Assembly (NCBI GenBank): GCA_002255585.1
Contig: NCBJ01000005.1
Span: 1,066 to 65,065 of the forward strand
DNA from: Parcubacteria group bacterium 21-54-25
GTDB taxonomy: Bacteria > Patescibacteriota > Minisyncoccia > Phycocordibacterales > Phycocordibacteraceae
Length of the DNA: 64,000 nucleotides
Direction: 5' to 3'
In this document: positions 6,309 to 44,073 of the stretch, one piece after another
Numbering within the stretch: the first letter of the stretch is position 1
How the letters are laid out: each line of letters begins with the position of its first letter
The notes under the pieces: generated by a model
Told to the model about the DNA's origin: nothing
What the model saw: only the letters and a program-made list of their open reading frames with translations
Database searches by the model: none
Program-made: the position numbers and the translations under genes

Positions 6309-6330
6309 CGCGTTTCGTAATAATGGTAAG

Positions 6331-7089: not shown

Positions 7090-7093
7090 ACGC

Positions 7094-8236: not shown

Positions 8237-8321
8237 TTGACAGGTAACTATTTTGTAGTAAAGTCAGCGACAGAATTCAACTCAACATATTGTTGCGTTG
8301 ATATATTGGGAGGGAATGGCC

Positions 8322-17500: not shown

Positions 17501-17663
17501 CTCCGGTGAGCGTCGTGACGACGATGCCTTCCGCGATATTTACAGGCGGCTGTACTTCTTTGGGGATTTGGAGTAAAGAAAAAGAGCCAGCGATGATAAG
17601 CGTGGCGACAAGCACATAGCTAAACTGTCGCCGATCAAGAAAAAAATGCCACAGCCACAACAT
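14559..17663 (-). CDS. RND-family efflux transporter (AcrB/HAE1-like, 12 TM, two large periplasmic loops)
   Basis: 1034 aa, AcrB-type N-terminus MLWLWHFFLDRRQFSYVLVATLIIAG, duplicated TM bundles. Confidence 0.85.
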   Translation of the reverse strand: MLWLWHFFLDRRQFSYVLVATLIIAGSFSLLQIPKEVQPPVNIAEGIVVTTLTGASATDMETLVTNKLEDQISGISNIDTMTSTSRDSVSTITVQFDANANIDQSIQNLRDAVSKAVPNLPADASTPAVTKVSFSNTPVLIASVAAPVPPLLLSETGQTVSDALKRVSGVSDVNVAGVPDRQVDVIVNKNNLAAYGLTLADVIGAIQTANAPIPVGAISTNGVSYTVNFKGGITDPATINNVVVASKNGAAVYVRDVAQVINGLAPATTYSRLSLGGKPAQNAITFSVYKQSSASTQGVASAVKDALQSLQKTTLAGFTVYVSPATDMSVQVGKQLGDLAKTGVETVALVLLVLLITIGWREAVVAAISIPLSFLIAFIGLYMTGNSLNFISLFALILAVGILVDSGIVVTEAIHARMRGNGGALAAARQALADYAWPLIAGTMATVAVFVPLFFISGIVGKFIAGIPYTLIFVLTASIFVSLGLVPLLAIVLSKKHTNAFEEKQEYYTARITAWYKNMLRRILTHRHTQKIFLLLLAGLFAVSISLPLLGVVQTVFLPQNNQDFVFISITKPYGTTLAVTNRAVEQVEAVLYKDPEVYSFQTTVGQGSALAGGALANAASGANIANITVNLPPGHPYTSTYVVNDLQKRLASITDATVQVLQVTGGPPGGAPVQIEFLGNNLNDIITAADNAKHLLATIPGVTNLTSSTQDNGTEFDFTIDRAKAAARGVSTLAVAQTLRSAINGTKAISITQPNQTMDVVVKMNLNAGGTNPSHTASTTLGTLKNLTVYGTQGPVLLGSILSATLAQNNASIVHKDKVRMETVSAYPSSNTTASAIVSAFQKKISSLSLPPGVSVSYGGDTKSINQSFSQMFVALIAGLVLMFMILIVAFNSFRYTFYLISIVPLSLIGVLDGLALTGQPISFSSLLGVIALGGVIINHAIILMDSMIRHLRATPEAAPIDVVVDSAATRLRPIVLTTITTVIGMIPLSLTNATWGPLAFSIMFGLAFAIVLTLVLVPVLFYRAQLRKQRRA

Positions 17664-17666
17664 AGT

Positions 17667-19274
17667 TTAGGGGGTGCCAACAATGACCGACTGGCCGCTT
17701 GAAAGCCCGCGCGCGTCAATCACAATACGCAAAGAAGCGCTCACGTCTGGCTGAAGAGCCGCCATCCCATCGGCAATGTCTTGAATCGTAACCGGATGCG
17801 CGACGAGCGCGCTCGAACTGCTCACCGTAAAGATTTCCGCTCCCGCCGGTGTTATTTTTATCGCGGTGAGAGGAACAAAAAGAAGCGGGCCGCTGTATGT
17901 TGAAGTAACTCGATAAGAAAGTACAACGGGTACGGTTTCTCCATCGGTAAGCGTTTGTGGGGAACCAATGAGACCTACCCTGACTTCAATTTTGTTTGTC
18001 AGGGGGTCGCGCGCTGGCGCGATAAAGGTTATGACACCTGGGAAAGAGTCATTTATGATAGCCCTATCGCCCACGGCCAGTTTCGCGGCGTCGGTGGCGG
18101 AAACGGCCGTTTTGATATACAGAGCATGCGGATTTGAAATAACCGCAACAGGGGAAAACGTTGGTACGTAGTCACCAAGCGTGATGGGTAAACTGACGAT
18201 TGTTCCGCTAACAGGGCTTCGAACAATCGTTTTTTCAAGTGCTGCACGTGCGGCGTCATAGCCGCCCTGCGCTTGCTTTACTTGCGCCTTTGCAAGAGCG
18301 ATGGCACCGGCCGTGCCGCCTGTCGCTACGTTTTGTGCCGCTTGTGTTCCTGAAATAGCGTTGTCATACGCACTCTTTGCCGCAATAAGACCGGAAAGGG
18401 CGGCGTTCACTTCACTACGGCCTGCAGAAACAGATGCAGCGTAGCCCGCAAGGGTACTGGCAGACACGCTTGCGCTCGGCTGGGTTTCATTGATAGCAGC
18501 GGTAAGGTTTCCAAGAAATTGTGTAGCAAAATTCGCTGCAGTGATCACGTCCGTGCCGTGCGCGTCGAGTGTTGAGCTTGCGGTATCTTGCACCTCGGGA
18601 CGAATCGTCGCAAATATCGTTTGAAGCTGCCTTCGCTCTTCTTGCAACAGATTTATAAGTTTATTATCGGGTACGATAAGCGTTAGTTGTGCGGAAATTG
18701 TGCGAGGATTGGAGAAGAGCACGTCTGCTTTCGTGTGTATCGCGTCGTCAAGCGCGGCATAGGTACTCTGGAGCGCATTTGCAAAGGCGTTTTGTGCGTT
18801 ATTCTGCACACTCGTGCTTTGCACAACGGAAATATGGGACCCCGTTGCTGATGTGCCTTCAGCATTTGCAACGCCAACCTGCGCTGCTTCGTACGCGCCC
18901 TGCGCCTGCAAGACGACCGCCTGTTGGGAGCTATTTTCAAAGGAGGCAATGATTTCACCTGCGGAAACATGGTCACCAAGGGCGTGTGGAAGAGAAACAA
19001 TCTCGCCTGCCGTTTGCGAGAGCACGGTTGCCTGATTGAGTGACGTTACCGTGCCGATGACCGGAAGCGAACTTGTCGCAGATGAAAAACTCGCAATAGG
19101 AGCAACGGTTACCTGCACGGCGTTAGAAAGAGACGTATCGCCTGCTGCTGGTGTCGTGCGTGCGGTGTACGCGTGTATCCCCCCGCCAAGTGCGACAAGA
19201 AGAACAAGACCTCCAAAAAACGACCACAGCGGCGCGCGTGCGATAACGTTACGAAACGGTGTCAGTAGAGACAT
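17667..19274 (-). CDS. Efflux periplasmic adaptor (membrane fusion protein, HlyD/AcrA family)
   Basis: N-terminal TM anchor, long Ala/Gln-rich coiled-coil hairpin, biotinyl-lipoyl and beta-barrel segments; 3-bp gap to RND gene. Confidence 0.7.
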   Translation of the reverse strand: MSLLTPFRNVIARAPLWSFFGGLVLLVALGGGIHAYTARTTPAAGDTSLSNAVQVTVAPIASFSSATSSLPVIGTVTSLNQATVLSQTAGEIVSLPHALGDHVSAGEIIASFENSSQQAVVLQAQGAYEAAQVGVANAEGTSATGSHISVVQSTSVQNNAQNAFANALQSTYAALDDAIHTKADVLFSNPRTISAQLTLIVPDNKLINLLQEERRQLQTIFATIRPEVQDTASSTLDAHGTDVITAANFATQFLGNLTAAINETQPSASVSASTLAGYAASVSAGRSEVNAALSGLIAAKSAYDNAISGTQAAQNVATGGTAGAIALAKAQVKQAQGGYDAARAALEKTIVRSPVSGTIVSLPITLGDYVPTFSPVAVISNPHALYIKTAVSATDAAKLAVGDRAIINDSFPGVITFIAPARDPLTNKIEVRVGLIGSPQTLTDGETVPVVLSYRVTSTYSGPLLFVPLTAIKITPAGAEIFTVSSSSALVAHPVTIQDIADGMAALQPDVSASLRIVIDARGLSSGQSVIVGTP

Positions 19275-27103: not shown

Positions 27104-27270
27104 GAGCCCAAAAGCAGTGTTTTAGGCATGTTTTGCCAGCGCAGGAGCTCTTTAGAATACATTTTTGAAAAATTGCCATATTGACAGCGATTGTGAGGGG
27201 TAGAGAATGAATGCACCACAACGCTTGGGGCGCTGGTTGGTTACTCTCTTATAATAAATAGTAAAAACCT

Positions 27271-30200
27271 ATGAAGAAAAGCTCGCTTCTACTTCTATCT
27301 GTTCTCACTACGCGCACGGCTCGCATCGTCGCGCTATCCCTTTCTGTCTCCGCCATCGCCATGGGCGGATTTTTTATTAGCCAGGCGTATGCATCATCAA
27401 CAGTGAACGTTATAACGTTCGATAAACCCATTAGCGGAAGCTATGTGCGCGGTACAACTGCACTTGCTTGGCAGTTCACCCAGACGGTATTTTCCAGTAC
27501 GGCTAATCTGACATACTCAAGCAACTTCTCGTCTTGGCAGAATAATGTCATTGGATCATCGATCGCGACGACAACACTTAATTATGATTGGCCGACAGTA
27601 GACATTCCAAATGGCACATACGAAGTTCGTTTAGAGGATAGTCTAAATAATAGCGGTACTTCTGCAACGTTTAATATAGACAACACGCCCCCCACAACAA
27701 CGCTCGCGACAACGACGTCCCCAGACCCGACAACGGGTTGGTACAACAACACAAGCGGATACACGCCGCCCCAAATCACACTCACCTGCACCGACAACTT
27801 GAGCGGCTGCTTAGAAATTGTGCAGAATTGGTACAACGCGACCTCAAGTGCGCTTGTCGCGTCCGCGACAACAACTGGTGCGACTGCAACGATAGACCCG
27901 AGTTCCATCCCGCAAGGCGACAACATTCTGGTCTACTACTCAGAGGACAACGCGGTTGATAAACATGGTGTGCACAACGTCGAGAAAGCGCATCAGGCAG
28001 AGTTCAAAGTAGACACCCAAGCCCCAAGCATCTCTTCCTACACACTCAACGGCAAGGCCGCTGACGCCTATCTCAATCCGAATCTCCCCAACGCCTCAAC
28101 GACGATCACCCTTACCGCAAACGAGCCGGTTGATTGGTCTTCTATACAAATGGTCAACGCTAGTGGAAGCTCGGTAAAAACGTTTACCGTCAGCTCAACT
28201 TATGACGGGACGAATTCCGCAACGGTAACTTGGGATGGTAAGACTGCCACCAGCACTGCTTCTGAAGGTATATACACCATCAAGGCGCATATTATCGATC
28301 TACATGGGAATGATGTTAAAAATATTTCTCTCACACTGTACACCATTACGATTGACACAACGCCGCCAACCCTCACCCTTTCTTCTCCCGTGGCGAATAC
28401 CGTGTACGAGAGCAAAACGGCCAACGGTAACACAACAGCAAGCACGACCGCTCTTGATTTCACCGCCTCTGACGCCAACCCGCTCACGTACACTTATTCT
28501 ATTGACGGCCACGCGACCACGAGTCCAGCGACGGCTCAAAATGGCGTGCCTACGACCGCCGCTCTTTCCGGTTCCGGCCTCACCGACGGGCAGCACACAC
28601 TCGTCGTGACGGTGACCGATGGCGCGGGTAATAGCGTCTCCTCGGCGCCTGTCTCGTTTGTTTTTGACAACAACAAAACGCTCACCGTGAGCAATCAAGC
28701 AAGCGACAACGCCGACTTCAGCTCTATCGGCGCTGCGGTCGCGGCTTCTGACGCGGCAGGGCTCTCGGGCGAGGCAATCAGTGTCTATAAAGGCACTGGT
28801 TCGTACGCCGAAAACGTCACGCTTGATAACCCATTCACGCTTGAAAGTCAGAGCTCTTCTAACGAAGCAGTAATTAAGGGCACGGTAACGATTCCTTCCA
28901 CGGGAAGCGGTACCACCGTGCAGAACCTCTCATTTACGAACCCAGGTGCGAGCACGGCACTCGTTATTAGCGGCGCAAGTAATGTAAGGGTCGCTAGCAG
29001 TACGTTTAACGGTATCGGTACTGGTACTGCAACGGGGAACATTCAAGCAATAGACGTAAATAGTAGCGGAGGTACTTCAATGTCGGATATCACCATCTCT
29101 GGTAACACAATTACAAATGTTGGGAATAACAGCAACGGTAGTTCAAAAGGCATCTACATTGGCGACTCGACCGGCTCAAACACGATCTCGAACGTGACAA
29201 TTGATGGGAATCAAATCTCAAGCATAACTGCCGATAATTCGAACAAAGGCGCCTATGGTGTTCTGGTGAATCATGCAACTTCGGTCACGGGCGCAACAAC
29301 CGGACTACTCATTCAAGACAACACCATCTCGGGACTCAATGGCCTGTGGGCACACGCAATTGGTCTTGAAGGCAACACGCCGAGCGCAGTCGTGACAGGG
29401 AACATCATCAGTGGTCTCACTGATAACAAAGATGGTACCGACGACGTGGGTGTTATGTTGCAAGACGATGGTGGCGTGTCGACGGTCACTATATCTAAAA
29501 ACCAATTCGCGTCTGACATCATCGGCGTAGGAAACGCGACGACCACTTTGACCGCGACCACAACCGCTACGGGTAACTGGTGGGGGAGTATCCAAGGTCC
29601 GAAAACTTCTGCATACGCCACGATTAGTAATCCTTATGGAGATGGTGCTTCTGTGTACGGTCCGGTCTCTTATACACCGTGGTGCACCGACTCGTCATGT
29701 TCGTCGACTGGTAGCGCGCCAACGGCAGTTGTAACTAATCCTCCCCATAATCCAACAAATGTTACAAGTCCTCGTTTTACCGTTGGCTCCGCCACTTCTT
29801 CAGCCAGTACGGTTGTGTATTACAAATATCAGCTTGACGGGTATCCGTGGAGTGCAGCGACCTCAACGAGCGTTGCCATCGCAACATCAAGTCTTGCCGA
29901 CGGCTCACACACACTGAACGTCCTTGGCCGCGACCAGGCAGGCAACTGGCAAACGACGCCGACCACGTACACGTGGACGATTAATACGACAGCACCAGTC
30001 CTCAAGGAAGTCACACCAATTACGACACCGACCGCAAGCACGACGGTGTCGTACGTGTTCAACACAACCAAGCCAGGCAGCCTTGCTTACGCAGGCAGCT
30101 GCAACAACGGCTCGCTCAGAAGTGTGAGCGCCGAAGGTAACGCAACGACGACCTTTAGTTCGCTTTCTGATGGTCTGTACAACTCGTGCACCATTACCGA

Positions 30201-32265
30201 GACGGATAACGCAGGGAACACGAGTAACGTGCTTACTATCGCGCCCTTTATCATTGACACGACACCGCCTGTTATTAACGTGGGGCCGGCTATCATCGCG
30301 AGCACTACCGTAACCGAAAACGCAACCGCCACAGACGCGCTCTCGGGTGTCGCCTCCACCACATGGACGCAAGTAGCTGGCCCGGGCACGGTTACCTTCG
30401 GCTCGCTGCATGCGACAAGCACAACGCTTACGGCAAGCATCGACGGTCTCTACACGCTCCAACTTGCCGCAACCGACAAGGCGGGCAATACGAGCACGGC
30501 AACGCTGAGCTTCACCTGGGATACCGTACCCCCCACAATTACCGCTCCGGCAAACATCACGAAAGAGGCAACGGGATCTTTGACGCCGGTTACTCTTGGC
30601 ACGCCCACGGTCTCTGACAACCTATCTACCACAACCGGTTCAATAAAGGTTACGAATGACACGCCGTCTGCATTTCCGGTTGGTACCACGACGGTCACCT
30701 GGACGGCAACGGACGCGGCAGGCAACAGTGCGAGCACGACGCAGGAAGTGGGTATCATAGACACAATACCGCCAACTATCTCCGGCACACCTGCAAATAT
30801 TACTGCCGAGGCAACGTCATCTCTCGGTGCGTACGTGAGCTGGACGAGCCCGACCGCGACCGACGTCGTTGATGGAACCGATACGGTAAGCTGTCTTCCA
30901 GCATCTGGCTCGCAGTTCAATCTCGGCACGACGACCGTTTCTTGTAGCGCGACCGACCACGCGGGCAACACAGCGTCAACAACCTTTAAGGTGGCGGTGC
31001 GCGACACGACACCGCCCATCATCGCGTCGCACGCTGACATTACCGTCACGGCCGATCAGCTCGGCGGCAGTAAAGTGACGTACACCGCGCCTAACTCGAC
31101 CGACGCAGTTGATGGCACGGTGGCGGCAACGTGTGCACCGGCTTCCGGCACGCTCTTTCCGGTAAACGCGACCACGACCGTGACCTGCACCAAGACTGAC
31201 GCACACGGCAATGTCGCAACACCGACCACCTTCACGGTGACGGTCAATCCAGGTCCGCTCGTGCAGCTCGGTATTACCGCTGCGCCAACAAACCCCACCA
31301 CTGCAAATGCAAGCACCATTACCGTTAGCGGCCAAGACCAGTACGGCAACACGGTGCCGAGCGACAACTCAACAATCGCCGTTCTTTCCACCGATGGTGG
31401 CGGGACATTGGGCACGACGCTCTTGACGCTCGTGAACGGTGCGTCAACAACCGAGCTCACGAGCACACAGCCGGGCACCGTGCACGTGAACGCCGCAAGT
31501 AGCCCACTCACACCAGCACAAACGACCGTGACATTCACGGGCGCGACGGTGCCGGACACCACGCCGCCAATTATCTCAAGCATACAGTCAACAAACATTG
31601 GCACGAGCACAGTGACGATAACGTGGCTCACAAACGAGAACGCGACGTCCCAGGTGGAGTACGGTACGACGTCAGGCTACGGTACTTCAACTGCCGTCGA
31701 CTCGACACTCACCTCTTCCCACAGCGTGACGCTCACCGGCCTCACACCAAACACGACGTATCACTTCCGCGTTAAATCAGCCGACGCATCGAACAATCTC
31801 GCAACCTCGGTCGACAACACGTTCACGACGGCAGTCGACAACAATACTGCGGTACTCGCCGTAAACGGTATCGACGCGACAAAGACCTACGCCATCGCCG
31901 ACGACACCTTTGGCAATGGCTGGGCGTGGACCTTCCACGTGACCGTTCCGACGACTGAACAGTATCTCTCGATGAAGTTCAACGATTTCCTCGGTGCGCC
32001 AAGCGGCACTATTCCGGTCGCGGGTAACGTGCGTTTCTACTCACTGCAATCATCTGACGCAAACGCGACGACGAGCGCAATTACGATTGCCGGCCCCGGT
32101 GCCTACAGCGCGCCAATGCACCTCACGGGCGACCTGGCACCAGGCACGGCTGGACGACAGGTAGATATTGTGGTAGAAATGCGTGTGCCGACCGGCACTA
32201 CAGGGGGCTCCTACTCGACCAGCTATGGCATCCAATCGACCAGCACGCCGCCGGTAATTCCTTAA
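27271..32265 (+). CDS. Giant secreted surface protein (1664 aa): signal peptide, right-handed beta-helix repeats, three HYR domains, Big_2-like and Fn3 domains
   Basis: MKKSSLLLLSVL...AYASS signal; NVTIDGNQISSITADNSN beta-helix repeats; three ~80-aa D-x-T-PP-I / DxVDG / C-PASGSxF / TTTVTCTxTD HYR units (30531-31260); VEYGTTSGYG...TTYHFRV Fn3. Confidence 0.8.
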   Translation: MKKSSLLLLSVLTTRTARIVALSLSVSAIAMGGFFISQAYASSTVNVITFDKPISGSYVRGTTALAWQFTQTVFSSTANLTYSSNFSSWQNNVIGSSIATTTLNYDWPTVDIPNGTYEVRLEDSLNNSGTSATFNIDNTPPTTTLATTTSPDPTTGWYNNTSGYTPPQITLTCTDNLSGCLEIVQNWYNATSSALVASATTTGATATIDPSSIPQGDNILVYYSEDNAVDKHGVHNVEKAHQAEFKVDTQAPSISSYTLNGKAADAYLNPNLPNASTTITLTANEPVDWSSIQMVNASGSSVKTFTVSSTYDGTNSATVTWDGKTATSTASEGIYTIKAHIIDLHGNDVKNISLTLYTITIDTTPPTLTLSSPVANTVYESKTANGNTTASTTALDFTASDANPLTYTYSIDGHATTSPATAQNGVPTTAALSGSGLTDGQHTLVVTVTDGAGNSVSSAPVSFVFDNNKTLTVSNQASDNADFSSIGAAVAASDAAGLSGEAISVYKGTGSYAENVTLDNPFTLESQSSSNEAVIKGTVTIPSTGSGTTVQNLSFTNPGASTALVISGASNVRVASSTFNGIGTGTATGNIQAIDVNSSGGTSMSDITISGNTITNVGNNSNGSSKGIYIGDSTGSNTISNVTIDGNQISSITADNSNKGAYGVLVNHATSVTGATTGLLIQDNTISGLNGLWAHAIGLEGNTPSAVVTGNIISGLTDNKDGTDDVGVMLQDDGGVSTVTISKNQFASDIIGVGNATTTLTATTTATGNWWGSIQGPKTSAYATISNPYGDGASVYGPVSYTPWCTDSSCSSTGSAPTAVVTNPPHNPTNVTSPRFTVGSATSSASTVVYYKYQLDGYPWSAATSTSVAIATSSLADGSHTLNVLGRDQAGNWQTTPTTYTWTINTTAPVLKEVTPITTPTASTTVSYVFNTTKPGSLAYAGSCNNGSLRSVSAEGNATTTFSSLSDGLYNSCTITETDNAGNTSNVLTIAPFIIDTTPPVINVGPAIIASTTVTENATATDALSGVASTTWTQVAGPGTVTFGSLHATSTTLTASIDGLYTLQLAATDKAGNTSTATLSFTWDTVPPTITAPANITKEATGSLTPVTLGTPTVSDNLSTTTGSIKVTNDTPSAFPVGTTTVTWTATDAAGNSASTTQEVGIIDTIPPTISGTPANITAEATSSLGAYVSWTSPTATDVVDGTDTVSCLPASGSQFNLGTTTVSCSATDHAGNTASTTFKVAVRDTTPPIIASHADITVTADQLGGSKVTYTAPNSTDAVDGTVAATCAPASGTLFPVNATTTVTCTKTDAHGNVATPTTFTVTVNPGPLVQLGITAAPTNPTTANASTITVSGQDQYGNTVPSDNSTIAVLSTDGGGTLGTTLLTLVNGASTTELTSTQPGTVHVNAASSPLTPAQTTVTFTGATVPDTTPPIISSIQSTNIGTSTVTITWLTNENATSQVEYGTTSGYGTSTAVDSTLTSSHSVTLTGLTPNTTYHFRVKSADASNNLATSVDNTFTTAVDNNTAVLAVNGIDATKTYAIADDTFGNGWAWTFHVTVPTTEQYLSMKFNDFLGAPSGTIPVAGNVRFYSLQSSDANATTSAITIAGPGAYSAPMHLTGDLAPGTAGRQVDIVVEMRVPTGTTGGSYSTSYGIQSTSTPPVIP

Positions 32266-32272
32266 TAGATAT

Positions 32273-32914
32273 ATGAAAACACTCACTACACTCATCACGA
32301 GCGTTGCGTTTCTGGCGCTGGCAGCTCCGGCAATGGCGTCTACGGTGAGTGGAACGCTATCGACGGGTGTCTCGACGGGTATTTCAGGTATCGTGGACGC
32401 GGGTGTCTCTGCAAGCGTTCCGCCTGGAACGTATGCAAGTACGCAGAGCGTCGCGCTCTCGGCGAGCGGTTCTGACAACATCTACTACACGGTGGATGGT
32501 TCGTCACCAGCATGTGCTCCCACGACGGGAACGCTGTACGCTGGAGCGATTACCGTTTCTAGCTCAGAAACCATTCGCGCGGCTGCGTGTTTCGGCACCG
32601 TCGCGTCGCCAGTAGGCGTCTTCGCGTACGGCATTAATATTCCGACGCCCTCTTCTTCTGGGGGTGGAAGTAGCGGTGGCGGAGGAGGCGGTGGTGGGAG
32701 CAGTGGCGGCGGAAGCGTCATTACAACGCCGACAACTGCTACCACAACGCTTGTAGGCGACATTAATGGCGACGGGCAGGTGAACGTGCTGGACTTTAAC
32801 ACGCTCTTGGTGCAGTGGGGAGAGACAGGCAGCAACCTTTCTGCCGATCTCAACCACGATGGCGTTGTTGACGTGCTCGATTTCAATTTACTCATGGCTC
32901 ACTGGACAGCTTAA
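32273..32914 (+). CDS. Secreted protein with Fn3-like CHB_HEX_C-type domain, Gly/Ser linker and C-terminal dockerin module
   Basis: Signal MKTLTTLITSVAFLALAAPAMAS; NIYYTVDGSSPA; GGGSSGGGGGGGGSSGGGS; dockerin repeats DINGDGQVNVLDFNTLL and DLNHDGVVDVLDFNLLM. Confidence 0.7.
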   Translation: MKTLTTLITSVAFLALAAPAMASTVSGTLSTGVSTGISGIVDAGVSASVPPGTYASTQSVALSASGSDNIYYTVDGSSPACAPTTGTLYAGAITVSSSETIRAAACFGTVASPVGVFAYGINIPTPSSSGGGSSGGGGGGGGSSGGGSVITTPTTATTTLVGDINGDGQVNVLDFNTLLVQWGETGSNLSADLNHDGVVDVLDFNLLMAHWTA

Positions 32915-32920
32915 TTACTC

Positions 32921-33709
32921 ATGACTCGTATGAACCGAATATTCTCAGTAGGGGCGCTCGTGCTTTCCTTTGTATTACCAGCCGCCGCGTTTGCGGCGTC
33001 AGTCGGGCTTTCTCCGGCATCGGTTTCAGTGAAGCCGGGCGAGGTATTCACCGTAACAGTGCTTGCAAACCCTGCGGGTGCGCATGTGTACACGGTGCGC
33101 GCAAATATTTCTTTTAACCCGTCACTAGTGTCGGTAACCAACTTTGCGTTCGCACCGAAATGGATCCAGCTTACGCAACCTGGCTATGACGCGATCGACA
33201 ATACCAATGGTTCGCTCATAAAAACTGCCGGTTACCCAGGCGGAATCACGAACCCAACGGTGCTTGGCACTGCGACTTTCACCGCGAAGAAAGCGGGTAC
33301 GGCGGCTATTACGGCAACCAACCAGTCGCTCTTGCTTGATGCAAACGGTAAAAACGCGCTCTCTGGCACACAGGGTCTGGTGAGTGTGGTAGTAACTGTA
33401 CCGCCCACCCCCACACCAGCTCCGAAGCCAAAACAAACTGCCGCAACGACCCAGACGGCCTCGGTTGTGCGTGCTGTCGCGTTTGGTGCGACCGCAACGG
33501 CATCGGCGTCTGCCAGCACCACTGCAGCTTCCACTAGTGTGGCAACTGCCCCCGCCGCGACATCTGCGCCCGCCACAGCCGCGACCAGCAGCAGCACCTC
33601 CGGCGGAAGCTCGTCGCTACCTATTGTGATAGTCGTTATTGTTATTGCACTTCTCCTTGCTCTCTGGTGGATGAATAGCAAGCGCACTCCCAAAACCCCG
33701 TCCGCGTAA
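32921..33709 (+). CDS. Cell-surface anchored protein with N-terminal cohesin-like beta-sandwich domain, Thr/Ala-rich stalk and C-terminal TM anchor
   Basis: Signal peptide; GEVFTVTVLANPAGAHVYTVRANISFNPSLVSV...TATFTAKKAGTAAITA cohesin-like pattern; C-terminal LPIVIVVIVIALLLALWWMNSKR. Confidence 0.6.
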   Translation: MTRMNRIFSVGALVLSFVLPAAAFAASVGLSPASVSVKPGEVFTVTVLANPAGAHVYTVRANISFNPSLVSVTNFAFAPKWIQLTQPGYDAIDNTNGSLIKTAGYPGGITNPTVLGTATFTAKKAGTAAITATNQSLLLDANGKNALSGTQGLVSVVVTVPPTPTPAPKPKQTAATTQTASVVRAVAFGATATASASASTTAASTSVATAPAATSAPATAATSSSTSGGSSSLPIVIVVIVIALLLALWWMNSKRTPKTPSA

Positions 33710-33726
33710 GAAAACGGGTATGGAGT

Positions 33727-33760
33727 GAAAACCCCGCGCGCCCCTGGCGCGCGGGGTTTT
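33727..33760 (+). terminator. Intrinsic terminator before rpsL
   Basis: AAAACCCCGCGCGCC-cctg-GCGCGCGGGGTTTT. Confidence 0.65.
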
Positions 33761-33831
33761 CACGTGGTTGCGTTTCCGCGTCCATTCCTATATAGTGCTC
33801 CCAACCCCCGCGTGGGGATTTTACGTTCGAT

Positions 33832-35422: not shown

Positions 35423-37168
35423 ATGTACTCGCAACAACTGCTTGATTACATTAGTGCACAACGAAAAGCGGGTGCCGAGCGCGGCGTTATAGTCGAGACA
35501 CTGCGTACTGCTGGGTGGAGTGAAAACGATATCAACGCCGCTCTCGTTGCAGAGGGGGTGCCAGCACCACCCGCACCGGTGCCAACGCTACCGCCCGAAC
35601 AAGCGCCAGCAGCAACCGCCGTGGGAGCGGGCTCTCCGACACCAGAGGCAAACACACATCGTTCGTGGGCGCGTCTACTTACCATAGGGGTTTCGGTGCT
35701 TGTTCTTGTTGTGCTGGTTGCAGGCGTTGCCTATGCTTATGTAGAGAAGATAGGACCGTTCTCAAGCCCTCCGTACACTGAAAACAATCTGTTCTCTGGA
35801 CTACTCACCAAGGCGGCACTCATACGCACATCCACGTATGAAGCATCCTCAACGCTTATCATGGAGCCGAGAGAGGCAGACGCGAAGCCGTTCACCTATC
35901 AGCCACCAAGCAAACAACTCATTGCAGAGTACACAAACGATGCGCAGCGCGCACAATCTGTGTCAAATATCCTTATGCAGCTTCAGTATGCAACACGCTA
36001 CCCAGCATCGTTACTACAGCTACAGAGACAGAACAACTCGCACCTCTACAATCCTGTATTTTCGATATCGATAAATGATCCCGTAACAAACAAACCCTAC
36101 GACTACACGCTTACTAACGGCGGTAAGAATTTTGCCCTGAGCGTTACGTTTCAAACGAGTGATGCGATACAGGCCATTCAGAGAGAATATGGATATTCAG
36201 CCACCAACACGCCCATTACGGGACAAACGGTCACGTTTACCAAAAATAGCCCCACATACTACTACCTCTCATCGACCCCTCCCAAACCGTTTTTTGTACA
36301 GATGCAAGATATGGCGAGCTACTTTCCTCCGCAATTAGCTGTCGCGTTTTCTTTAGGTGCCACAGTGGATTGGGCACACAGCGCAGACTGGAAATTCAAT
36401 CTTTCCGCATCGGGAGACTTTGGTGATCTCACGTATAAAGTTGGTGGAGATGCCCTAAAGAAAGATGGCGTGTACTACCTGCGCATCAACGACATTCCTG
36501 GCATAGTCGGCATGCTCGCCGACTACAAAGGAAAGTGGATTAAGTACGATCCAGCAACGGCGACGACAACAGCTACCGCATACCCCATTTCAGAATTGTC
36601 GAGCATTACATCCCAGCTCCCACAGGCGGAGAAAGACTACAAGAAGCAGCGGGCTGCCTATACCAAACTGCTGCTCATGGCGGCAAACATAGCTGACAGC
36701 GTGCACCTTATGCATTTCAAAACACCGCCTGTGGTCGACCACGTCAACGGCCGCACGCTCTATCGGTACGAGTTAGTACTCAATAAGGATGCGATAGTAC
36801 CGTTTTATACAAAACTGCTTGCCGCGGCAAAGCAAGACCCTGATCTTGCCAACGCGCCGTTCGTTACCGACACGGGCCTCATTAATTACCTGAAGAGTCC
36901 TGAGTTTGACAGCGTTTTTGCGTACTATAACGAGAATACCGCACTTACGTTGTGGGTTGACCCGCAAGGATTCCCCGCGCAGCTTAGTTACAGTATTCGC
37001 TTTGTACCGCCAGACACCGCCACCGCGCTGAAAGATAAACAAGCACGTCTCACGTTTACGTTGAACATGTCGCGCATTAATCAGCCAGTAACCATTCAGG
37101 CCCCGTCCGGAGCCAAGACCGTCGAGCAGCTTGTCGGGACAAGCACGCCTGGCGGCATAGGTCTATAG
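35423..37168 (+). CDS. Membrane protein: ~45-aa N-terminal LRTAGW module, Pro/Ala linker, one TM, ~480-aa extracytoplasmic domain
   Basis: MYSQQLLDYISAQRKAGAERGVIVETLRTAGWSENDINAALVAEGVPAPP paralogous to N-terminus of 51090 gene. Confidence 0.55.
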   Translation: MYSQQLLDYISAQRKAGAERGVIVETLRTAGWSENDINAALVAEGVPAPPAPVPTLPPEQAPAATAVGAGSPTPEANTHRSWARLLTIGVSVLVLVVLVAGVAYAYVEKIGPFSSPPYTENNLFSGLLTKAALIRTSTYEASSTLIMEPREADAKPFTYQPPSKQLIAEYTNDAQRAQSVSNILMQLQYATRYPASLLQLQRQNNSHLYNPVFSISINDPVTNKPYDYTLTNGGKNFALSVTFQTSDAIQAIQREYGYSATNTPITGQTVTFTKNSPTYYYLSSTPPKPFFVQMQDMASYFPPQLAVAFSLGATVDWAHSADWKFNLSASGDFGDLTYKVGGDALKKDGVYYLRINDIPGIVGMLADYKGKWIKYDPATATTTATAYPISELSSITSQLPQAEKDYKKQRAAYTKLLLMAANIADSVHLMHFKTPPVVDHVNGRTLYRYELVLNKDAIVPFYTKLLAAAKQDPDLANAPFVTDTGLINYLKSPEFDSVFAYYNENTALTLWVDPQGFPAQLSYSIRFVPPDTATALKDKQARLTFTLNMSRINQPVTIQAPSGAKTVEQLVGTSTPGGIGL

Positions 37169-37196: not shown

Positions 37197-37466
37197 TCAA
37201 TGTATTGTTGGACTGTCCGATTGAAAATCGGGCTCTTCAAACCCAAGCGCTCGGAGCGAATCAGCGAGTATGTATTCGGTTTTTGATGCCCAAATGCTTC
37301 CATCGTCAAACATAATGAAATTCCAAGCGCACCCATCATCCTCGTCCAAAAAACAAACAAAGAAATAGCCACTCTCTTCGGGGAAGAGGTGACGAAACGC
37401 TTCGAACGCCCGCTCCTTCAACTGTGTGAAAGAGTAGATTTCGAGTACGAGTTTCTCCTCACTCAT
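37197..37466 (-). CDS. Small hypothetical protein (89 aa)
   Basis: GGGGGAG SD 6 nt before ATG 37466; ORF track starts at TTG 37472. Confidence 0.4.
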
Positions 37467-37674
37467 GGGCAACTCCCCCAGTTCCTACTGTCTCACTGCA
37501 TATTACGTGCGTATTACCAATACCGCAAACGCACGATCCGCGGCACCGACGCATGAGAGAAATAAGATTGCCACGCAATCGAGCGGATTACGGCACAAAG
37601 ATTGCATTTTGCTGGATTTGAGCTATTCTACAAGCAACGCTTTCGGCGGGTTTTTATTTTTATTATCACGCTCT

Positions 37675-39822
37675 ATGAATCGAGACTATCCACTGGAGAA
37701 AGTACGCAACTTCGGCATTATTGCCCACATCGACGCTGGTAAAACCACCACCAGTGAACGCGTGCTTTTCTACACGGGCTCTCAGCACAAAATCGGCGAG
37801 GTGCATGAAGGCGAAACCACAACAGACTGGATGGAGCAGGAGCGCGAGCGCGGCATCACTATCACCGCCGCTGCTATCACTTGTTTCTGGAGCAAGACCG
37901 AGCAGAAAGACAAAAAGGACCTCTCGAAAAAATTTCGCTTCAATATCATCGATACGCCAGGGCACATTGACTTCACCGCCGAGGTGCAGCGCTCCATGCG
38001 CGTTTTGGACGGTGCAATCGTCGTATTTGACGGTGTCGCCGGTGTTGAGCCGCAGTCAGAAACAAACTGGCGCTACGCGGATGACGCAAACGTGCCGCGC
38101 CTGTGCCTCATAAACAAGCTCGATCGCACCGGTGCTTCGTTTGAACGCTCGTACCAGAGCATTCTCGACCGTCTCTCAAAAAAGGCCGTGCGTATGCAAA
38201 TTCCTATGGGCGAGGAAGGGGCGCACGAAGGGGTCGTGGATCTCCTCACAATGCAAGCGTACACGTTTACCGGAAACATGGGCGAAGACGTGGTGCCTGT
38301 TCCAGTCCCGGAACAGTTAAAAACTGACGCCGAGAAATATCGCGCCGAGCTCGTTGAGCGCATCGTCGAACAAGATGAAAACCTCATGAGCGCGTACCTC
38401 GAAGGCAACGAGCCGCCGCTCGCAGACCTTAAGAAGGCGCTGCGTAACGCAGTCATTGCAAACGAAGTATTTCCTGTATTCGCTGGCTCGGCGCTCAAAA
38501 ACAAGGGCGTGCAGCTTGTGCTTGACGCTGTTGTTGACTATCTCCCCTCACCGCTTGATCTGCCGCCCGTGAAAGGCATTGACCCAAAAACAAGCGGAGA
38601 AATTGAGCGCAAGCCCTCTGACGACGAGCCGTTCACCGCGCTCGCGTTTAAACTCCAGACGGATCCATTCGTCGGCGCACTTACGTTCTTCCGGGTATAC
38701 GCGGGCACACTCGAAGCCGGCTCGTATATATACAACGCCAACACGGGCACGAAAGAGCGCGTTGGTCGCATTGTGCGGCTCCAGGCTGACAAACGCGAAG
38801 AGGTGAAGAAAGTCTTCACGGGTGAAATAGCCGCTGCCGTAGGACTGAAAGACACGAAGACCTCGCACACGCTTTGTGACGAAGCACACCCTATTGTGCT
38901 TGAGGAGATTCACTTTCCGGAACCGGTCGTTTCGCTTCGCATTGAGCCGAAAACCAAAGCCGACCAAGAGAAGCTCGGTATTGCGCTCAGGAAGCTCGCC
39001 GACGAAGACCCCACGTTCCGTGTCTCTACCGATGATGAGACCATGGAGACGATCATCGCTGGCATGGGTGAGCTGCACCTGGACATTCTCGTTGATCGCA
39101 TGAAGCGCGAGTTCAACGTCGAAGCAAACGTTGGTAAACCGCAGGTAGCGTACCGCGAAACGATTAAAAGTACTGCCGAAGTGGAGAACAAGTACATCAA
39201 ACAGACCGGTGGTCGTGGACAGTACGGCCATGTGAAAATCCGCATCAAGCCGCTTGAAGAATTGCCTGAAGGTGCAAAGATTCCAAATAACACGAAGCGC
39301 GAAGACCACTTTGAGTTCATCAACAGCATTAAAGGAGGCGTGATCCCACAGGAATACATTCCGGCAGTGGAAAAAGGCATTCGCGAGGCGTTGGACCGCG
39401 GCATCTTGGCTGGCTACCCCATGGTAGACGTCTCTGTCGACCTTTTTGACGGTTCGTATCACGACGTCGACTCATCCGAAATCGCATTCAAAATTGCCGC
39501 CTCACAAGCTTTTCAGGAAGCGGCGAAGCAAGCGAAACCAGTTTTACTCGAACCGATTATGCGCGTCGAGGTGGTGGTGCCCGAGGAATTTATGGGCGAC
39601 GTTACCGGTAACCTCTCGGGCAAGCGCGGTGCCATTGAAGGTATGGAAGACCGCGGTATGAGCAAGGCCATCCACGCGAAGGTGCCGCTTGCAGAGATGT
39701 TTGGCTACACCACAACACTGCGTTCCATGACCGAGGGTCGCGGTTCCATGACCATGGAGTTCGACCACTATGAGACCGTGCCGACCAACGTTGCGCAAGA
39801 TATCATCGCGAGCCGTAAGTAA
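37675..39822 (+). CDS. fusA: Elongation factor G
   Basis: [25 protein letters not shown]1 motif, [13 protein letters not shown]; start ATG 37675 (track 5' extension overlaps minus gene); TATTAT 8 nt upstream. Confidence 0.9.
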
Positions 39823-39883: not shown

Positions 39884-40792
39884 TTATGACGCAATACGCA
39901 CGCGCTCAAGCTCGGGGAGCAGTTTCTCATAAAGCCGCTCAATCAGCTGCAGAAGGACAAGCACCTCGTCGCGATTTTGTTTGAGTACCCCAAGCTTAAA
40001 TACATACGTTTTCACGCCGTAGCACTCGAAGCCAAATTCTTTGTATCCTTCCATAAGCATTGCCATAGCATCGGGTTGCAGTATTTCAAGTGCCTCTATC
40101 TCCTCGCCTTGCGGCACATACACGGAAAATTCTTTATTGAAATCACCCTCCACGGTGAGCGGCTTCGTATCTGACGGTTTCCAAACAAGCGCTGGGTCGA
40201 TCGTCATAAGGGACGTATGCGGTCGGATGAGAAGATGAGGCAGTTGATGCTGTACCTCAATCTCACCGACAATGTATTGTATTTGTTCTTGATACCTGCC
40301 CAAGCCAACGATGAACGAGTAGTTATACAGCCGTAACGCAGCATCTTTGTATGTTCCAGAAAGCACATGCGAAAGTGCTCTGTCATGTCCGCGCTCAAAA
40401 AAGCTGCCTGATACTGTTCCGGTAGATGCAGAGGGCGCATACGTAAACCCAAGCGAGTCAGCTAATTCGGTGAAAAACAATTTCTGCATTCTGAAATACA
40501 CACGCAAATATAAGACGATGGGAATGAGTAGCGGAAGAAGAAAGAGCAGTAACAGAATAACTGTCTCGGTGTTCGTATCTGCTATGGCGGCTAGATCATT
40601 TGCCGAAGCTACCCACCAAGCCGCGCTTTCAAGCAGAAGCATAGCTGCTACAGCCATGAATGTGTGCATGGGGCGCCGCTGCAACAAATAGCGCCAAGTG
40701 CTGCGCTGTACGCTAAGCACGGGCTCGTCCTGTTTGCGGGCGCCTGTATTTTTTGGTGGCGACGCGGACGGGACGCGAGACGACATATCCAT
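39884..40792 (-). CDS. Hypothetical membrane protein (302 aa, two TM near N-terminus)
   Basis: AAAGGA 3 nt before ATG 40792; inserted between fusA and tuf. Confidence 0.5.
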   Translation of the reverse strand: MDMSSRVPSASPPKNTGARKQDEPVLSVQRSTWRYLLQRRPMHTFMAVAAMLLLESAAWWVASANDLAAIADTNTETVILLLLFLLPLLIPIVLYLRVYFRMQKLFFTELADSLGFTYAPSASTGTVSGSFFERGHDRALSHVLSGTYKDAALRLYNYSFIVGLGRYQEQIQYIVGEIEVQHQLPHLLIRPHTSLMTIDPALVWKPSDTKPLTVEGDFNKEFSVYVPQGEEIEALEILQPDAMAMLMEGYKEFGFECYGVKTYVFKLGVLKQNRDEVLVLLQLIERLYEKLLPELERVRIAS

Positions 40793-40917: not shown

Positions 40918-43900
40918 ATGAAACAAATTTCTCGCGCGCTCGTGCTCCCTGTGTTGTTCCTTGCTTTTGCCACCCCCGCCTTTGCGGCGACCAACACCCC
41001 GACCGATTACGACATCATGAGTGCCTGTTTTGGCCAAACGCCCACAGCCGGTAGTGTTTGTGCCAAGGCAGATTTCGATGGCGATGGCATCGTTAATATC
41101 GCTGACCTAGCAGCATTCAAGAGTGCCATAAAATACGATATCAATGGTGACGGGGCCGTAGATCTGTCCCCCAACGGCGCGGACGCCGCTGCGCTACAGG
41201 CCTGTTTTGGCCAAACGCCCACGGCCGGTAGTCCGTGTGCTAAAGCCGATCTAAACGGTGACGGGATGGTGAATTTTGCTGACCTAAGCGCGTTTAAGGC
41301 CGCAAGCAAATACGACTTAAACGGCGACGGGGAAATAACGTTCAATAACACGAGCGCGCCGGTCATCACCAATATTGTTAACGACGCAACGCCGAACGTG
41401 AACGTGACGATTTCTGGCACGAACTTCGATCCGGCCTCGAACACCGTTACTATTGGTGGAACAAGTAGGAACTTGCCATCTTTCAACGGGACGAATATCA
41501 ACTTCCAGATGACGGACTTCGGTCTTAGTGCTGGCAGTTATTCAGTACAGGTCACCACTTCAGCTGGTGCAAGTAATGTATATCAGGCGACCATCACGAA
41601 TTCCCCGGCGAGCACGGGTCTCAAAATAGCGCTTTTGCCGACGTCGCCGAACGGCACCACCCTCTTTCAGGGTCAGAGTGGCGCTGATCTCGCGGACTTC
41701 GTGTTCTCGAATCCAAGCTCAGTTCCGATTACTGTGACCAGTCTTGCTTTCAACCGTATCGGCGCTTCGAGCGACTCGGCGATGACAAACGTGTACCTCT
41801 CGCACAGCGGTACGCGCGTGACGGGGTCTAGTGGAGTTTATAATTCCCAATTTTCGTTCACAGATGGGGCGGGCCTCTTCACGGTCCCGGCGGGGGGTAC
41901 GTATTCGGTTTCGGTTCTTTCCGACATCGCGAACAGCGCCTCATCTGGTCAGCAGATCGGCGTGGCACTCGCTTCCGTTGGTTCTTTTGGCGCTATTGAT
42001 CCCTCGGTCAACTTCCCAATTAATGCCGGTTATCAAACAATTTCAACCCAAACACCTGCCCCCGCCATCACCTCCGTCTCGCCTACGAGTGGTTCTACAA
42101 ACACAGCCGTCACTCTCTATGGCACGAACCTTCAAGGGGCCACACAGGTACGGTTCTACAACACAAGCGGACAATTTGTCGCAAGCCAGAACGTTACGTC
42201 CGTTTCCTCTGACGGCACACACGTAACGTTCATTATCTCAGGTGTCTTCATGGGTATGGAGGGCGCAGGTTCATATCAAATAAATGTGCAATCGCCGAAT
42301 GGAACAACCAACAGTGAACCGTTTACCGTGACGTCGGAATCTATCCCCACCATCACCTCCACCAGCGCCAAGGCCGCAGGCACGTTCCAGGCGGATGCTG
42401 GCGGCGGTTTGCAGGTTTTCGGCACTGGTTTTTCCTCCGGTGCAACGGCGTATATCAACGGGGCACCGGTGACGACCACCTATGTCTCAAGTACTGAACT
42501 GGGGGTCAACGTTCCAACCAGCCTCTCTGCTGGCGCGAGCTATCCGATGTATGTTACTGGCGGAGGCGGCACGAGCAACACGGTGCAAATACAAATCTTG
42601 AGCAATCTTGCCAATTACCCGCACATCACCTCCACCAGCGCCAAGGCCGCAGGCACGTTCCAGGCGGATGCTGGTGGTGTCCTACAAATTTCTGGCACGA
42701 ACTTTTCCGGCGCAACAGCGGTATACATTGGCGGAGAACAGGCCACGATTACGAGTAACACCGGGACCTCGATCTTGATCGACGTCCCGAGCAACCTTTC
42801 CGCTGGCGTGAGCTACCCGCTCTTCGTTACCGGTCCTACCACCGGTGTGAGCAACACGGTGCAAATACAGATTTTGAGCGTCTTAAACTCGACCCCCACC
42901 ATCACCTTTGCGCAAGTGCCCGCCGAGAACAACAACGTGCTCCATCCAGGCGAACCAGCACGAGTATTCGGTGCGAACCTTGACCAAGCGGGGTCCATTC
43001 CAGTTGAAGTACGATTTATCGCTGCGGGCGCGACAGTCTACTCCGCTGATGTGCCAGGCACCGTGAACGCCGATGGTACGCAAGTGTCCTTTACGGTTCC
43101 ATCCTTATCGAACGGGACCTACTCACTCCTCGTCTATGCCAGAACATCGTTCGGCACGAATCAGATTTCGGTATCTGTCACAAGTCCGGCTACAGGAAGG
43201 ATCATCCCGTCAACCACGTTTATGAATTTTCACGTCGTACAAGGCCAGAGCAATCCACCGCCGGTCCCTATGACGCTTACGAACGCAGGTTCGGTACCGG
43301 TGGACTACACGCTCAACGTACCTAACCAACCAGCGTGGTTGAACACGAGCTATAGCACCAACACCCTGACGCTTGCCGCGGGCGGTGTCGTGGAGCTTGA
43401 GGCGTCAGTGGACGCCACGCAAGTAAATGCGCCGGGCACATACACGGCAACCCTGGTTGTGTCGGGCAATTTTTCAGGCTCACCGCTCAGCATTCCAGTT
43501 ACCCTAACGATTGATGCGGCACAAAACAGCAGTACGCCAACACCTTCAACTAACGAAAATACCCCACCGACCTCAAATACAAATACGCCAGCTGGCCCGT
43601 TCACCCAAAACCTCTGGCGCGGGCAGCATGGGGAAGAAGTGGTACAGCTGCAACAGCTCCTTAATCGCGACCCGAATACGCAAATTGCGGATTCAGGTCC
43701 CGGCTCGCCAGGTGAAGAAAATGGCTACTATGGCTACCTGACGCAGTCCGCAGTGCAAAATTTCCAGTGCAAGTACAACATCGTTTGTTCTGGCTCGCCT
43801 GACGCCACCGGCTATGGCGTGGTGGGGCCGCAGACGCGCGACGAACTGAACATGCTCTATGACCAGCAGGGCAGTAGCGCAGCAGCGGGTGCGCAGGCGA

Positions 43901-44073
43901 CGAACAATGTTGGCAATTCTAGCGGAACGAACGGTGCGCAAACAAACAACACCACAAGCGCATCCTCGCCCGCACCAACCGCCGCCCAGCTACAGACTCA
44001 ACTCCAGCAACTTTTACAACTTGTGCTCCAGCTCCAACAACAGCTTGCGCGGCAGCAGGCCTCCCCTAACTAA
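40918..44073 (+). CDS. Large secreted protein: signal peptide, two tandem dockerin modules, multiple IPT/TIG-like Ig domains, peptidoglycan-binding (PG_binding_1-like) domain, C-terminal Gln/Leu coiled-coil
   Basis: KADFDGDGIVNIADLAAF...DINGDGAVDL and KADLNGDGMVNFADLSAF...DLNGDGEITF; tandem 91-aa ITSTSAKAAGTFQADAGG repeats; NLWRGQHGEEVVQLQQLLNRD...GYYGYLTQSAVQNFQ. Confidence 0.75.
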   Translation: MKQISRALVLPVLFLAFATPAFAATNTPTDYDIMSACFGQTPTAGSVCAKADFDGDGIVNIADLAAFKSAIKYDINGDGAVDLSPNGADAAALQACFGQTPTAGSPCAKADLNGDGMVNFADLSAFKAASKYDLNGDGEITFNNTSAPVITNIVNDATPNVNVTISGTNFDPASNTVTIGGTSRNLPSFNGTNINFQMTDFGLSAGSYSVQVTTSAGASNVYQATITNSPASTGLKIALLPTSPNGTTLFQGQSGADLADFVFSNPSSVPITVTSLAFNRIGASSDSAMTNVYLSHSGTRVTGSSGVYNSQFSFTDGAGLFTVPAGGTYSVSVLSDIANSASSGQQIGVALASVGSFGAIDPSVNFPINAGYQTISTQTPAPAITSVSPTSGSTNTAVTLYGTNLQGATQVRFYNTSGQFVASQNVTSVSSDGTHVTFIISGVFMGMEGAGSYQINVQSPNGTTNSEPFTVTSESIPTITSTSAKAAGTFQADAGGGLQVFGTGFSSGATAYINGAPVTTTYVSSTELGVNVPTSLSAGASYPMYVTGGGGTSNTVQIQILSNLANYPHITSTSAKAAGTFQADAGGVLQISGTNFSGATAVYIGGEQATITSNTGTSILIDVPSNLSAGVSYPLFVTGPTTGVSNTVQIQILSVLNSTPTITFAQVPAENNNVLHPGEPARVFGANLDQAGSIPVEVRFIAAGATVYSADVPGTVNADGTQVSFTVPSLSNGTYSLLVYARTSFGTNQISVSVTSPATGRIIPSTTFMNFHVVQGQSNPPPVPMTLTNAGSVPVDYTLNVPNQPAWLNTSYSTNTLTLAAGGVVELEASVDATQVNAPGTYTATLVVSGNFSGSPLSIPVTLTIDAAQNSSTPTPSTNENTPPTSNTNTPAGPFTQNLWRGQHGEEVVQLQQLLNRDPNTQIADSGPGSPGEENGYYGYLTQSAVQNFQCKYNIVCSGSPDATGYGVVGPQTRDELNMLYDQQGSSAAAGAQATNNVGNSSGTNGAQTNNTTSASSPAPTAAQLQTQLQQLLQLVLQLQQQLARQQASPN

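Follow-up and report, generated by a model that had tools for sequence, protein, structure and literature searches.

The 64-kb stretch of the genome of Parcubacteria group bacterium 21-54-25 analysed here, referred to below as the window, contains three co-directional genes that lie nearly end to end in the list of open reading frames (ORFs) and encode proteins of 1664, 213 and 262 amino acids (aa), respectively (Table 1). The 213-aa product ends in a dockerin and the 262-aa product contains a cohesin; these two adjacent genes, here termed the cassette, are the subject of this study. An earlier note on this DNA had proposed that they encode a cohesin-dockerin surface-display pair, a view that is supported here by sequence, structure prediction and comparative genomics, which together point to a predicted plug and socket at the cell surface. 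The identical proteins in GenBank, B7X04_02265 and B7X04_02270 of the same bacterium, are both annotated as 'hypothetical protein', while the product of the cohesin gene is called 'cohesin domain-containing protein' in a later metagenome-assembled genome (MAG) of Candidatus Paceibacterota. The gap between the two genes is 6 nucleotides (nt; ttactc after the TAA), not the 7 bp given in the earlier note. The second ATG of the cohesin gene (MNRIF..., nt 32930) is an alternative start, used in homologues and in one NCBI record, and would widen the gap to the dockerin gene to 15 nt. A promoter-like site, the gene spacing and a closing hairpin suggest a single transcription unit spanning 27271-33709, the promoter candidate at 27181-27208 being a bare consensus match in a region where sigma-70-like consensus sites are no more numerous than in shuffled sequence.

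The 213-aa protein matches Dockerin_1 (PF00404) at aa 162-208 with 31.1 bits against a gathering cutoff of 22.9, and scores slightly below the cutoff of the NCBIfam model dockerin_GC (27.7, cutoff 29). The module consists of two tandem segments of ~22 residues, as the earlier note had read it, each comprising an EF-hand-like calcium loop followed by a helix. The loops, DINGDGQVNVLD (nt 32759-32794) and DLNHDGVVDVLD (nt 32846-32881), are 12 residues long and carry canonical residues in both segments; across the family the calcium-ligand positions 1, 3, 5, 9 and 12 are occupied by D, N/D, D/N, D/N and D in nearly all members (49 and 55 family loops), and the family shares the signature (V/I)(L/F)DFNxLxxxWG. 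An AlphaFold model of the dockerin (predicted local distance difference test score, pLDDT, 90.8) places a helix directly after each loop; dockerins make up all of its 24 best PDB matches, the closest being 2y3n_B (TM-score 0.75/0.81, root-mean-square deviation 1.0 A over 53 columns, 38% identity). The geometry expected of a calcium-binding dockerin is thus present in both segments. Nearer the N terminus the protein also matches CHB_HEX_C_1 (aa 50-105, 44.4 bits, cutoff 22).

The 262-aa protein matches Cohesin (PF00963) at aa 30-152 with 33.5 bits (gathering cutoff 24.1), covering profile positions 3-135 of 139. The AlphaFold2 model of this domain, built with 74 homologues, is all-beta with a pLDDT of 97.5. 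In a Foldseek search of the PDB, cohesins of types I, II and III account for every one of its 43 best matches, with TM-scores of up to 0.76; the top match is 6kgf_C (E 3.9e-10, TM-score 0.73). The earlier note had described the protein as a signal peptide, a cohesin-like sandwich, a Thr/Ala-rich stalk and a C-terminal transmembrane (TM) segment, and Pfam, the model and hydropathy agree with that description. This four-part layout, with a basic tail after the TM helix, is kept in 22 aligned homologues. There is no LPXTG motif ahead of the C-terminal hydrophobic segment (...GGSSSLPIVIVV...), and the Pfam scan of the cohesin protein returned no S-layer homology (SLH) match; the protein would be a type I membrane protein with its cohesin outside. 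The family to which it belongs comprises 927 clusters (50% identity) at E<=1e-3, or 633 at E<=1e-10, and is uniform, nearly all members having 220-270 aa and a single domain at residues ~25-155. Of the two outcomes that the earlier note had named as refuting its proposal, a lack of Cohesin matches for this domain and dockerin segments lacking calcium-binding geometry, neither was obtained. The earlier note's term 'scaffold' overstates what is an anchor with a single cohesin.

Table 1. Features of the three-gene unit, in window coordinates.
Feature	Position	Strand	Basis
Sigma-70-like promoter candidate (TTGACA-16-GAGAAT), upstream of the three-gene unit	27181..27208	+	consensus match only
Large surface protein, 1664 aa, predicted secreted, without C-terminal anchor	27271..32265	+	ORF, domain scan, hydropathy
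C-terminal 'type-A' domain in the large protein (aa 1525-1664, ~140 aa), proposed adaptor docking site	31843..32262	+	conservation
Small dockerin-bearing protein, 213 aa, proposed adaptor	32273..32914	+	ORF, Pfam
Signal peptide of the small protein, probably cleaved after AMA	32273..32338	+	hydropathy, family N-terminus alignment
Mature N-terminal motif STVSGTLSTGV (family consensus SEVTGTLSTG; peptide STVSGTLSTGVSTG)	32339..32371	+	family alignment
CHB_HEX_C_1 / Fn3_assoc beta-sandwich domain	32420..32587	+	Pfam
Gly/Ser-rich flexible linker, aa 127-148	32651..32716	+	translation, family comparison
Dockerin module, two segments of calcium loop and helix (loops 32759-32794 and 32846-32881)	32756..32911	+	Pfam, model, loops
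Cohesin anchor protein, 262 aa (259 aa if the start is 32930)	32921..33709	+	ORF, Pfam
Signal peptide of the cohesin protein, probably cleaved after AFA (AFA/AS)	32921..32995	+	hydropathy, homologue alignment
Cohesin beta-sandwich domain, aa 26-160	32996..33400	+	Pfam, model, Foldseek
Ala/Thr/Ser/Pro-rich low-complexity stalk, 68 aa (A21 T16 S11 P8)	33401..33604	+	composition, homologues
C-terminal transmembrane helix LPIVIVVIVIALLLALWWM, aa 233-251, 19 residues	33617..33673	+	Kyte-Doolittle hydropathy 2.94; kept in homologues
Short basic cytoplasmic tail NSKRTPKTPSA	33674..33706	+	translation, homologues
GC-rich hairpin followed by UUUUC, likely intrinsic terminator	33725..33763	+	dG -44.2 kcal/mol, z -6.4

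The pairing of the two genes is conserved well beyond this genome. Family profiles of the dockerin and the cohesin were built and applied to loci retrieved by cohesin similarity, the locus search having used 23 sequences. The genome set held 65 loci (63 evaluable) from species-representative genomes, almost all of them Patescibacteria and taking in Wolfe-, Jorgensen-, Nealson-, Lipton-, Vogel-, Azam-, Nomura-, Brenner-, Magasanik-, Berkel- and Kazan-bacteria, while the metagenome set held 80 contigs with 66 evaluable loci. In 56 of the 63 genome loci the ORF directly upstream of the cohesin gene ends in a dockerin, and the gene pair is present in 62 of the 66 metagenome loci, giving 118/129 (about 91%) for the pooled sets. 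The dockerin ends 0-6 residues from the C terminus of its ORF in 55 of the 56 genome pairs, and 18 residues from it in L007. Between dockerin and cohesin domain only the signal peptide of the cohesin protein intervenes. Within the 872 kb surrounding the cohesin genes of the genome set, dockerins of the family type are almost confined to the position upstream of the cohesin. This adjacency far exceeds chance, and it is the conserved linkage, together with the domains and folds, that upholds the display pair proposed in the earlier note.

Seven genome loci are unpaired. Three of these have defects: a masked run of N splits L030, L035 retains a frameshifted dockerin remnant and L044 has an N-run upstream. 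A fourth, L069 (ORF 6558-8540 of the Candidatus Brennerbacteria MAG JACPEK010000003.1), encodes cargo and anchor as a single ORF, in which a signal/TM segment, two fn3-like domains and a poly-Gly run precede a degenerate dockerin, with the first helix motif alone intact, a cohesin and a C-terminal TM helix. The dockerin may here be decaying within a cargo-anchor fusion of natural origin or, alternatively, the ORF may reflect an assembly error. An apparent dockerin-cohesin fusion in L030 was rejected as an artefact of the masked N-run, leaving L069 as the sole fusion. In the window the dockerin and cohesin genes share a reading frame, with TAA and two codons between them, and read-through of 32273-33709, if it occurred, would give a fused protein resembling that of L069. 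In L052, a Nealsonbacteria MAG, two genes ending in dockerins (5137-5850, 238 aa, and 5858-7876, 673 aa) precede one cohesin gene (7887-8618), which suggests that one type of anchor can serve more than one cargo.

It could be argued that the two modules serve docking between cells, the anchored cohesin capturing dockerin proteins from a host or a neighbouring cell, or host cohesins being bound by the secreted dockerin, and Patescibacteria are indeed described in the literature as often being episymbionts. In about 91% of loci, however, a single operon contains the genes of both partners, and one clade-specific set of changes is common to the two modules (see below). Self-assembly on one cell is the simpler explanation; cross-cell docking appears highly improbable.

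In contrast to the dockerin and the cohesin, what precedes the dockerin varies freely. With sizes of 115 to 1946 aa, the cargo proteins of different loci are not related to one another. In 49 of the 56 related genome loci the dockerin comes after a Gly/Ser run. Among the cargo domains are Big_2/3/4/5/12/13, HYR, surface Ig-like, lamin-tail (LTD), beta-helix/NosD and SpaA-like (SpaA_2) domains and DUF5018; the enzymes are two subtilases (Peptidase_S8) and one polysaccharide deacetylase (Polysacc_deac_1). Most of the cargo proteins checked are Ig-like repeat proteins, beta-helix proteins or subtilases. A plug and a socket that stay constant while the cargo is exchanged are the mark of an anchoring system.

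The nature of the cargo also bears on the possibility that the cassette is a minimal cellulosome, in which the cohesin would anchor polysaccharide-degrading enzymes for the breakdown of plant or microbial glycans. Cohesin and dockerin genes in a Shapirobacterales MAG, which are expressed, have been read in this way (PMC9123182), and the polysaccharide deacetylase cargo and the CHB_HEX_C domain of the adaptor could be taken in its favour. Against it, a check of 23 related cargo proteins (a Pfam scan for 20; for L006, L007 and L008, precomputed Pfam families in two cases and reading of the sequence alone in one) turned up no glycoside hydrolase, the window's own proteins have none either, and no carbohydrate-binding module (CBM) was seen in the cargo checked. 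Each anchor carries a single cohesin and no CBM, and among the proteins covered there is neither a multi-cohesin scaffoldin nor a dockerin-bearing glycoside hydrolase. We therefore reject the cellulosome, which is almost certainly not what these genes encode.

In the window the protein in front of the dockerin is small, and the large protein is encoded by the gene upstream of it. The 1664-aa product starts with a signal-like segment and contains three HYR, four Big_13, PKD-like and fn3/Pur_ac_phosph_N domains; its C-terminal domain, here called type-A, has no match in Pfam, NCBIfam or the PDB, and a word-index search with it retrieved four proteins only. The small dockerin proteins encoded downstream of type-A domains share the mature N terminus A/SEVTGTLSTG (A/STVSGTLSTG in the window), which is kept whatever precedes the linker, be it CHB_HEX_C, an fn3-like domain or nothing. 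Among the pairs that could be scored, 23 have both this motif and an upstream type-A domain, 56 have neither, four have type-A only and none has the motif only, counts that are not phylogenetically independent. Large proteins with a dockerin of their own (L014, L006) pass from the last fn3-like domain through poly-Gly to the dockerin, and have neither type-A nor CHB_HEX_C. A second, unannotated C-terminal domain of large proteins, type-B (GWNLIGY...GEGYWIF), pairs with a dockerin protein of ~350 aa from a different family; there are eight such co-occurrences, in the three-gene units of L019, L021, L034, L040, L041, L065, L026 and L018, and zero cross-pairing with type-A.

Two loci reached independently of cohesin are informative in this respect. 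In L156 a 1379-aa Ig-repeat protein ending in type-A is followed by P0119, which consists of a signal peptide, SEISGTLSTG, CHB_HEX_C, poly-Gly and PG_binding_1, and no cohesin gene comes after it. In L154 the type-A domain forms a protein by itself, P0271, and the gene next to it encodes a product with SEVTGTLNSG and two PG_binding_1 domains; again a cohesin gene is not found downstream. These loci suggest that the PG_binding_1 and dockerin versions do the same job, that of fixing the large protein encoded upstream to the envelope. The simplest reading is that the 213-aa protein is probably an adaptor, holding the large protein at its N-terminal end and the envelope at its C-terminal end. The earlier note had placed the cassette, the 1664-aa protein and a third protein, encoded at 40918-44073, in one modular docking system; the link to the large protein gains from the adaptor role suggested by co-occurrence, whereas the membership of the third protein is not supported.

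The latter is a 1051-aa protein (+ strand) with a signal-like N terminus and two Cys-containing repeats (ACFGQTPTAGSxCAKAD(F/L)xGDGxVNxADLxAFK...YDxNGDG), followed by TIG and CoaZ repeats, a PG_binding_1 domain and a Gln-rich tail. It had been called a double-dockerin protein, which is right insofar as there are two repeats, each with two calcium loops; Pfam reads Dockerin_1 in three stretches, with a score of 45.4 bits and aa 73-127 as the best of them. The dockerin-like modules (aa 45-145) lack the LDFNxLxxxWG signature, and the protein's best stretch scores only 21.7 bits against the family dockerin profile. The gene lies 7 kb from the cohesin, beyond rpsL-rpsG-fusA, and no cohesin gene adjoins it. 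Its dockerin is of a subtype different from that of the cohesin-adjacent family, with no partner evident.

The interface between the modules was explored by mutual information with average product correction on 112 non-identical natural pairs (effective number of sequences 83). Position 14 of the dockerin helix, the N of DFN (N176 and N205 in the window's protein), ranks top in both segments, and covaries with cohesin strand-3 residues 33/34 in domain numbering (T58/V59 of the full-length protein) and with residues 114/115/120 (z 5-6.5). Position 14 shares its helical face with 10/11 and 17/18, the positions classically used for recognition in type I complexes, and the 8-3-6-5 sheet through which cohesins classically bind includes strand 3, the strand order being taken from the cohesin model. 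In the loci concerned (L037, L051, L053, L054, L058, L061, L063, L068, L128 and L141) both dockerin helices change from DFN to DFV, cohesin strand 3 from YTVK to YAEK, and cohesin residues 114-120 from LD...N to F(E/Q)...(S/T). The DFV/YAEK change may represent a switch in specificity that arose in a single evolutionary event.

Taken together, we consider it likely that the cassette is a non-cellulosomal cohesin-dockerin surface-display system of Patescibacteria, including the proposed adaptor chain. The cohesin protein would be exported, its signal peptide cleaved, and be held in the cytoplasmic membrane by the C-terminal helix with the basic tail inside, while the stalk of ~68 Ala/Thr/Ser/Pro-rich residues would keep the single cohesin domain away from the membrane and might span the wall. 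The product of the upstream gene would be secreted and would carry, behind a Gly/Ser linker, a two-segment calcium-binding dockerin as its last ~52 residues; by plugging non-covalently into the cohesin, the dockerin would keep whatever precedes it on the cell. In the window the mature peptide STVSGTLSTG, possibly with the CHB_HEX_C domain, would bind the type-A domain of the anchorless 1664-aa Ig/HYR-repeat protein, and the resulting chain would run from the large protein through the adaptor to the membrane anchor. A role in host attachment, as suggested in the earlier note, is plausible in view of the cargo domains. The symmetry of the two segments would by itself allow the dockerin a dual binding mode.

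It should be emphasized that several points weigh against this interpretation. Cohesin-dockerin binding, and the dependence on calcium that we presume for it, are deduced from genomic linkage, and the contact between adaptor and large protein from co-occurrence and domain swapping. The loci were retrieved via the cohesin, such that the counts of paired genes are phylogenetically non-independent, and three genome loci (L015, L045 and L059) are truly without a nearby dockerin gene. The census of cohesin and dockerin genes in this organism, with one cohesin ORF and two dockerin-bearing ORFs, covers the 64-kb window. Finally, all the covarying changes map to one clade (one Fitch change), and thus the covariation, though consistent with the model, is weak evidence for it.

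These reservations leave room for the view that the two genes encode envelope proteins that are expressed together without binding each other, the dockerin stabilizing its own protein or binding a glycan, a wall polymer or the host surface, and the cohesin having another ligand. In addition to the reliance on linkage and the three cohesin loci without a dockerin gene, this view can draw on the many non-cellulosomal dockerin-like modules that have no known partner, and on the essential dockerin-domain protein of the cultivated Saccharibacterium Southlakia epibionticum (PMC10633639). The gene concerned, SEML1_0315, has no adjoining cohesin gene, and thus its essentiality cannot be transferred to the cassette. 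Adjacency in 118 of 129 loci despite freely varying cargo, however, is difficult to account for unless dockerin and cohesin are directly linked in function. Family-type dockerins are nearly absent elsewhere in the 872 kb, one natural fusion into a single ORF occurs (L069), and the dockerin is swapped for a wall-binding domain exactly where the cohesin gene is absent. We thus regard the absence of mutual binding as unlikely, and favour the surface-display system.

The cassette has partial counterparts among characterized systems. OlpA and OlpC of Clostridium thermocellum (3ul4, 4dh2) and ScaE of Ruminococcus flavefaciens (2zf9), whose cohesins stand at ranks 26, 27 and 36 of the structural matches, likewise place one cohesin on an envelope anchor that directly holds a dockerin protein. 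OlpA and OlpC are anchored by SLH domains and ScaE by a sortase signal, whereas the anchor of the cassette, with neither of these, is a C-terminal TM helix on a stalk with a basic tail. The cassette, a patescibacterial system, differs further in that the partner is encoded adjacently and in a 1:1 ratio, and that the cargo is adhesin-like or proteolytic rather than cellulolytic. The cohesin of Archaeoglobus fulgidus (2xdh) and the NagH/NagJ toxin complex of Clostridium perfringens (2ozn, 2vo8, 2jh2), structures of which occur among the fold matches of the modules (2xdh and 2vo8/2jh2, like OlpA/OlpC, among those of the cohesin model), represent the same non-cellulosic assembly of extracellular proteins, but are soluble enzyme-enzyme assemblies or isolated modules, unlike the membrane-anchored cassette. 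Type I dockerins, as in C. thermocellum (1ohz/2ccl) and Clostridium cellulolyticum (2vn5/2vn6, dual binding mode), share with the cassette dockerin two near-identical 22-residue segments and the lack of an X-module. The linker between the segments is shorter in the cassette, and its signature is hydrophobic at positions 10/11, which are Ser-Thr in the C. thermocellum dockerin. In wall anchoring by PG_binding_1, the adaptor of the sister loci has the same parts (signal peptide, SEVTGTLSTG, CHB_HEX_C or none, and poly-Gly) and ends in PG_binding_1; this version would bind the wall directly with no second protein, whereas the dockerin version requires the cohesin-TM gene.

Non-cellulosomal cohesin-dockerin modules were surveyed by Peer et al. 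2009, as cited in PMC10066038. In the literature searched, coverage of which was incomplete, neither the cassette nor the adaptor layer is described, and cohesins and dockerins in Candidate Phyla Radiation (CPR) bacteria receive only passing mention. A broader and more speculative proposal, which we offer tentatively and which may well prove wrong, is that Paceibacteria-type Patescibacteria have an undescribed three-layer plug-in surface, in which the type-A domains of anchorless large Ig-repeat proteins would capture the adaptor's SEVTGTLSTG peptide, for example by beta-strand complementation, the adaptor would be fixed either via dockerin and cohesin or by a peptidoglycan-binding domain, and the whole would serve as the main mount for host-contact proteins.

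The remainder of the window provides the setting of the cassette. Downstream lie rpsL, rpsG and fusA. The longest ORF for elongation factor G (EF-G), at 37465-39822 (+), has 785 aa. At 715 aa, the gene called in the relative L001 is ~70 aa shorter, and translation in the window probably begins at an internal codon. Flanking fusA, the products of 35423-37168 (+, 581 aa) and 39884-40792 (-, 302 aa) have no Pfam match at E<=1e-5, and the translation of the former suggests one internal hydrophobic segment after a Pro/Ala-rich stretch. An AcrB-type resistance-nodulation-division (RND) transporter (14562-17663, -, 600 bits) adjoins an HlyD-like membrane-fusion protein (17670-19274, -), and L001 has a similar set of MarR, membrane-fusion (BSH_RND, a weak match) and ACR_tran genes near its cassette; parts of a tripartite-type efflux system are unexpected if the Parcubacteria cell has one membrane. 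RecJ (DHH/DHHA1/RecJ_OB; 10323-12044, +) is encoded near a ComEC-type competence channel (12601-14109, +), a proximity that fits DNA uptake by a reduced genome. No tRNA or Rfam features were found in the 64-kb window.

A large part of bacterial diversity consists of Patescibacteria, which apparently live in attachment to other cells, but how large surface proteins are mounted on them is poorly understood. The cassette offers a concrete and testable answer to this question for one big group. It also corrects a recurring habit of annotation, in which CPR matches to cohesin and dockerin are read as cellulosomes (PMC9123182). As a compact, natural 1:1 pair with a simple TM anchor, the cassette could, through its orthologous variants (at least 600 clusters), supply orthogonal parts for surface display. 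For the organisms themselves, this widespread patescibacterial cassette is most likely a general way to hang large surface proteins on the cell.

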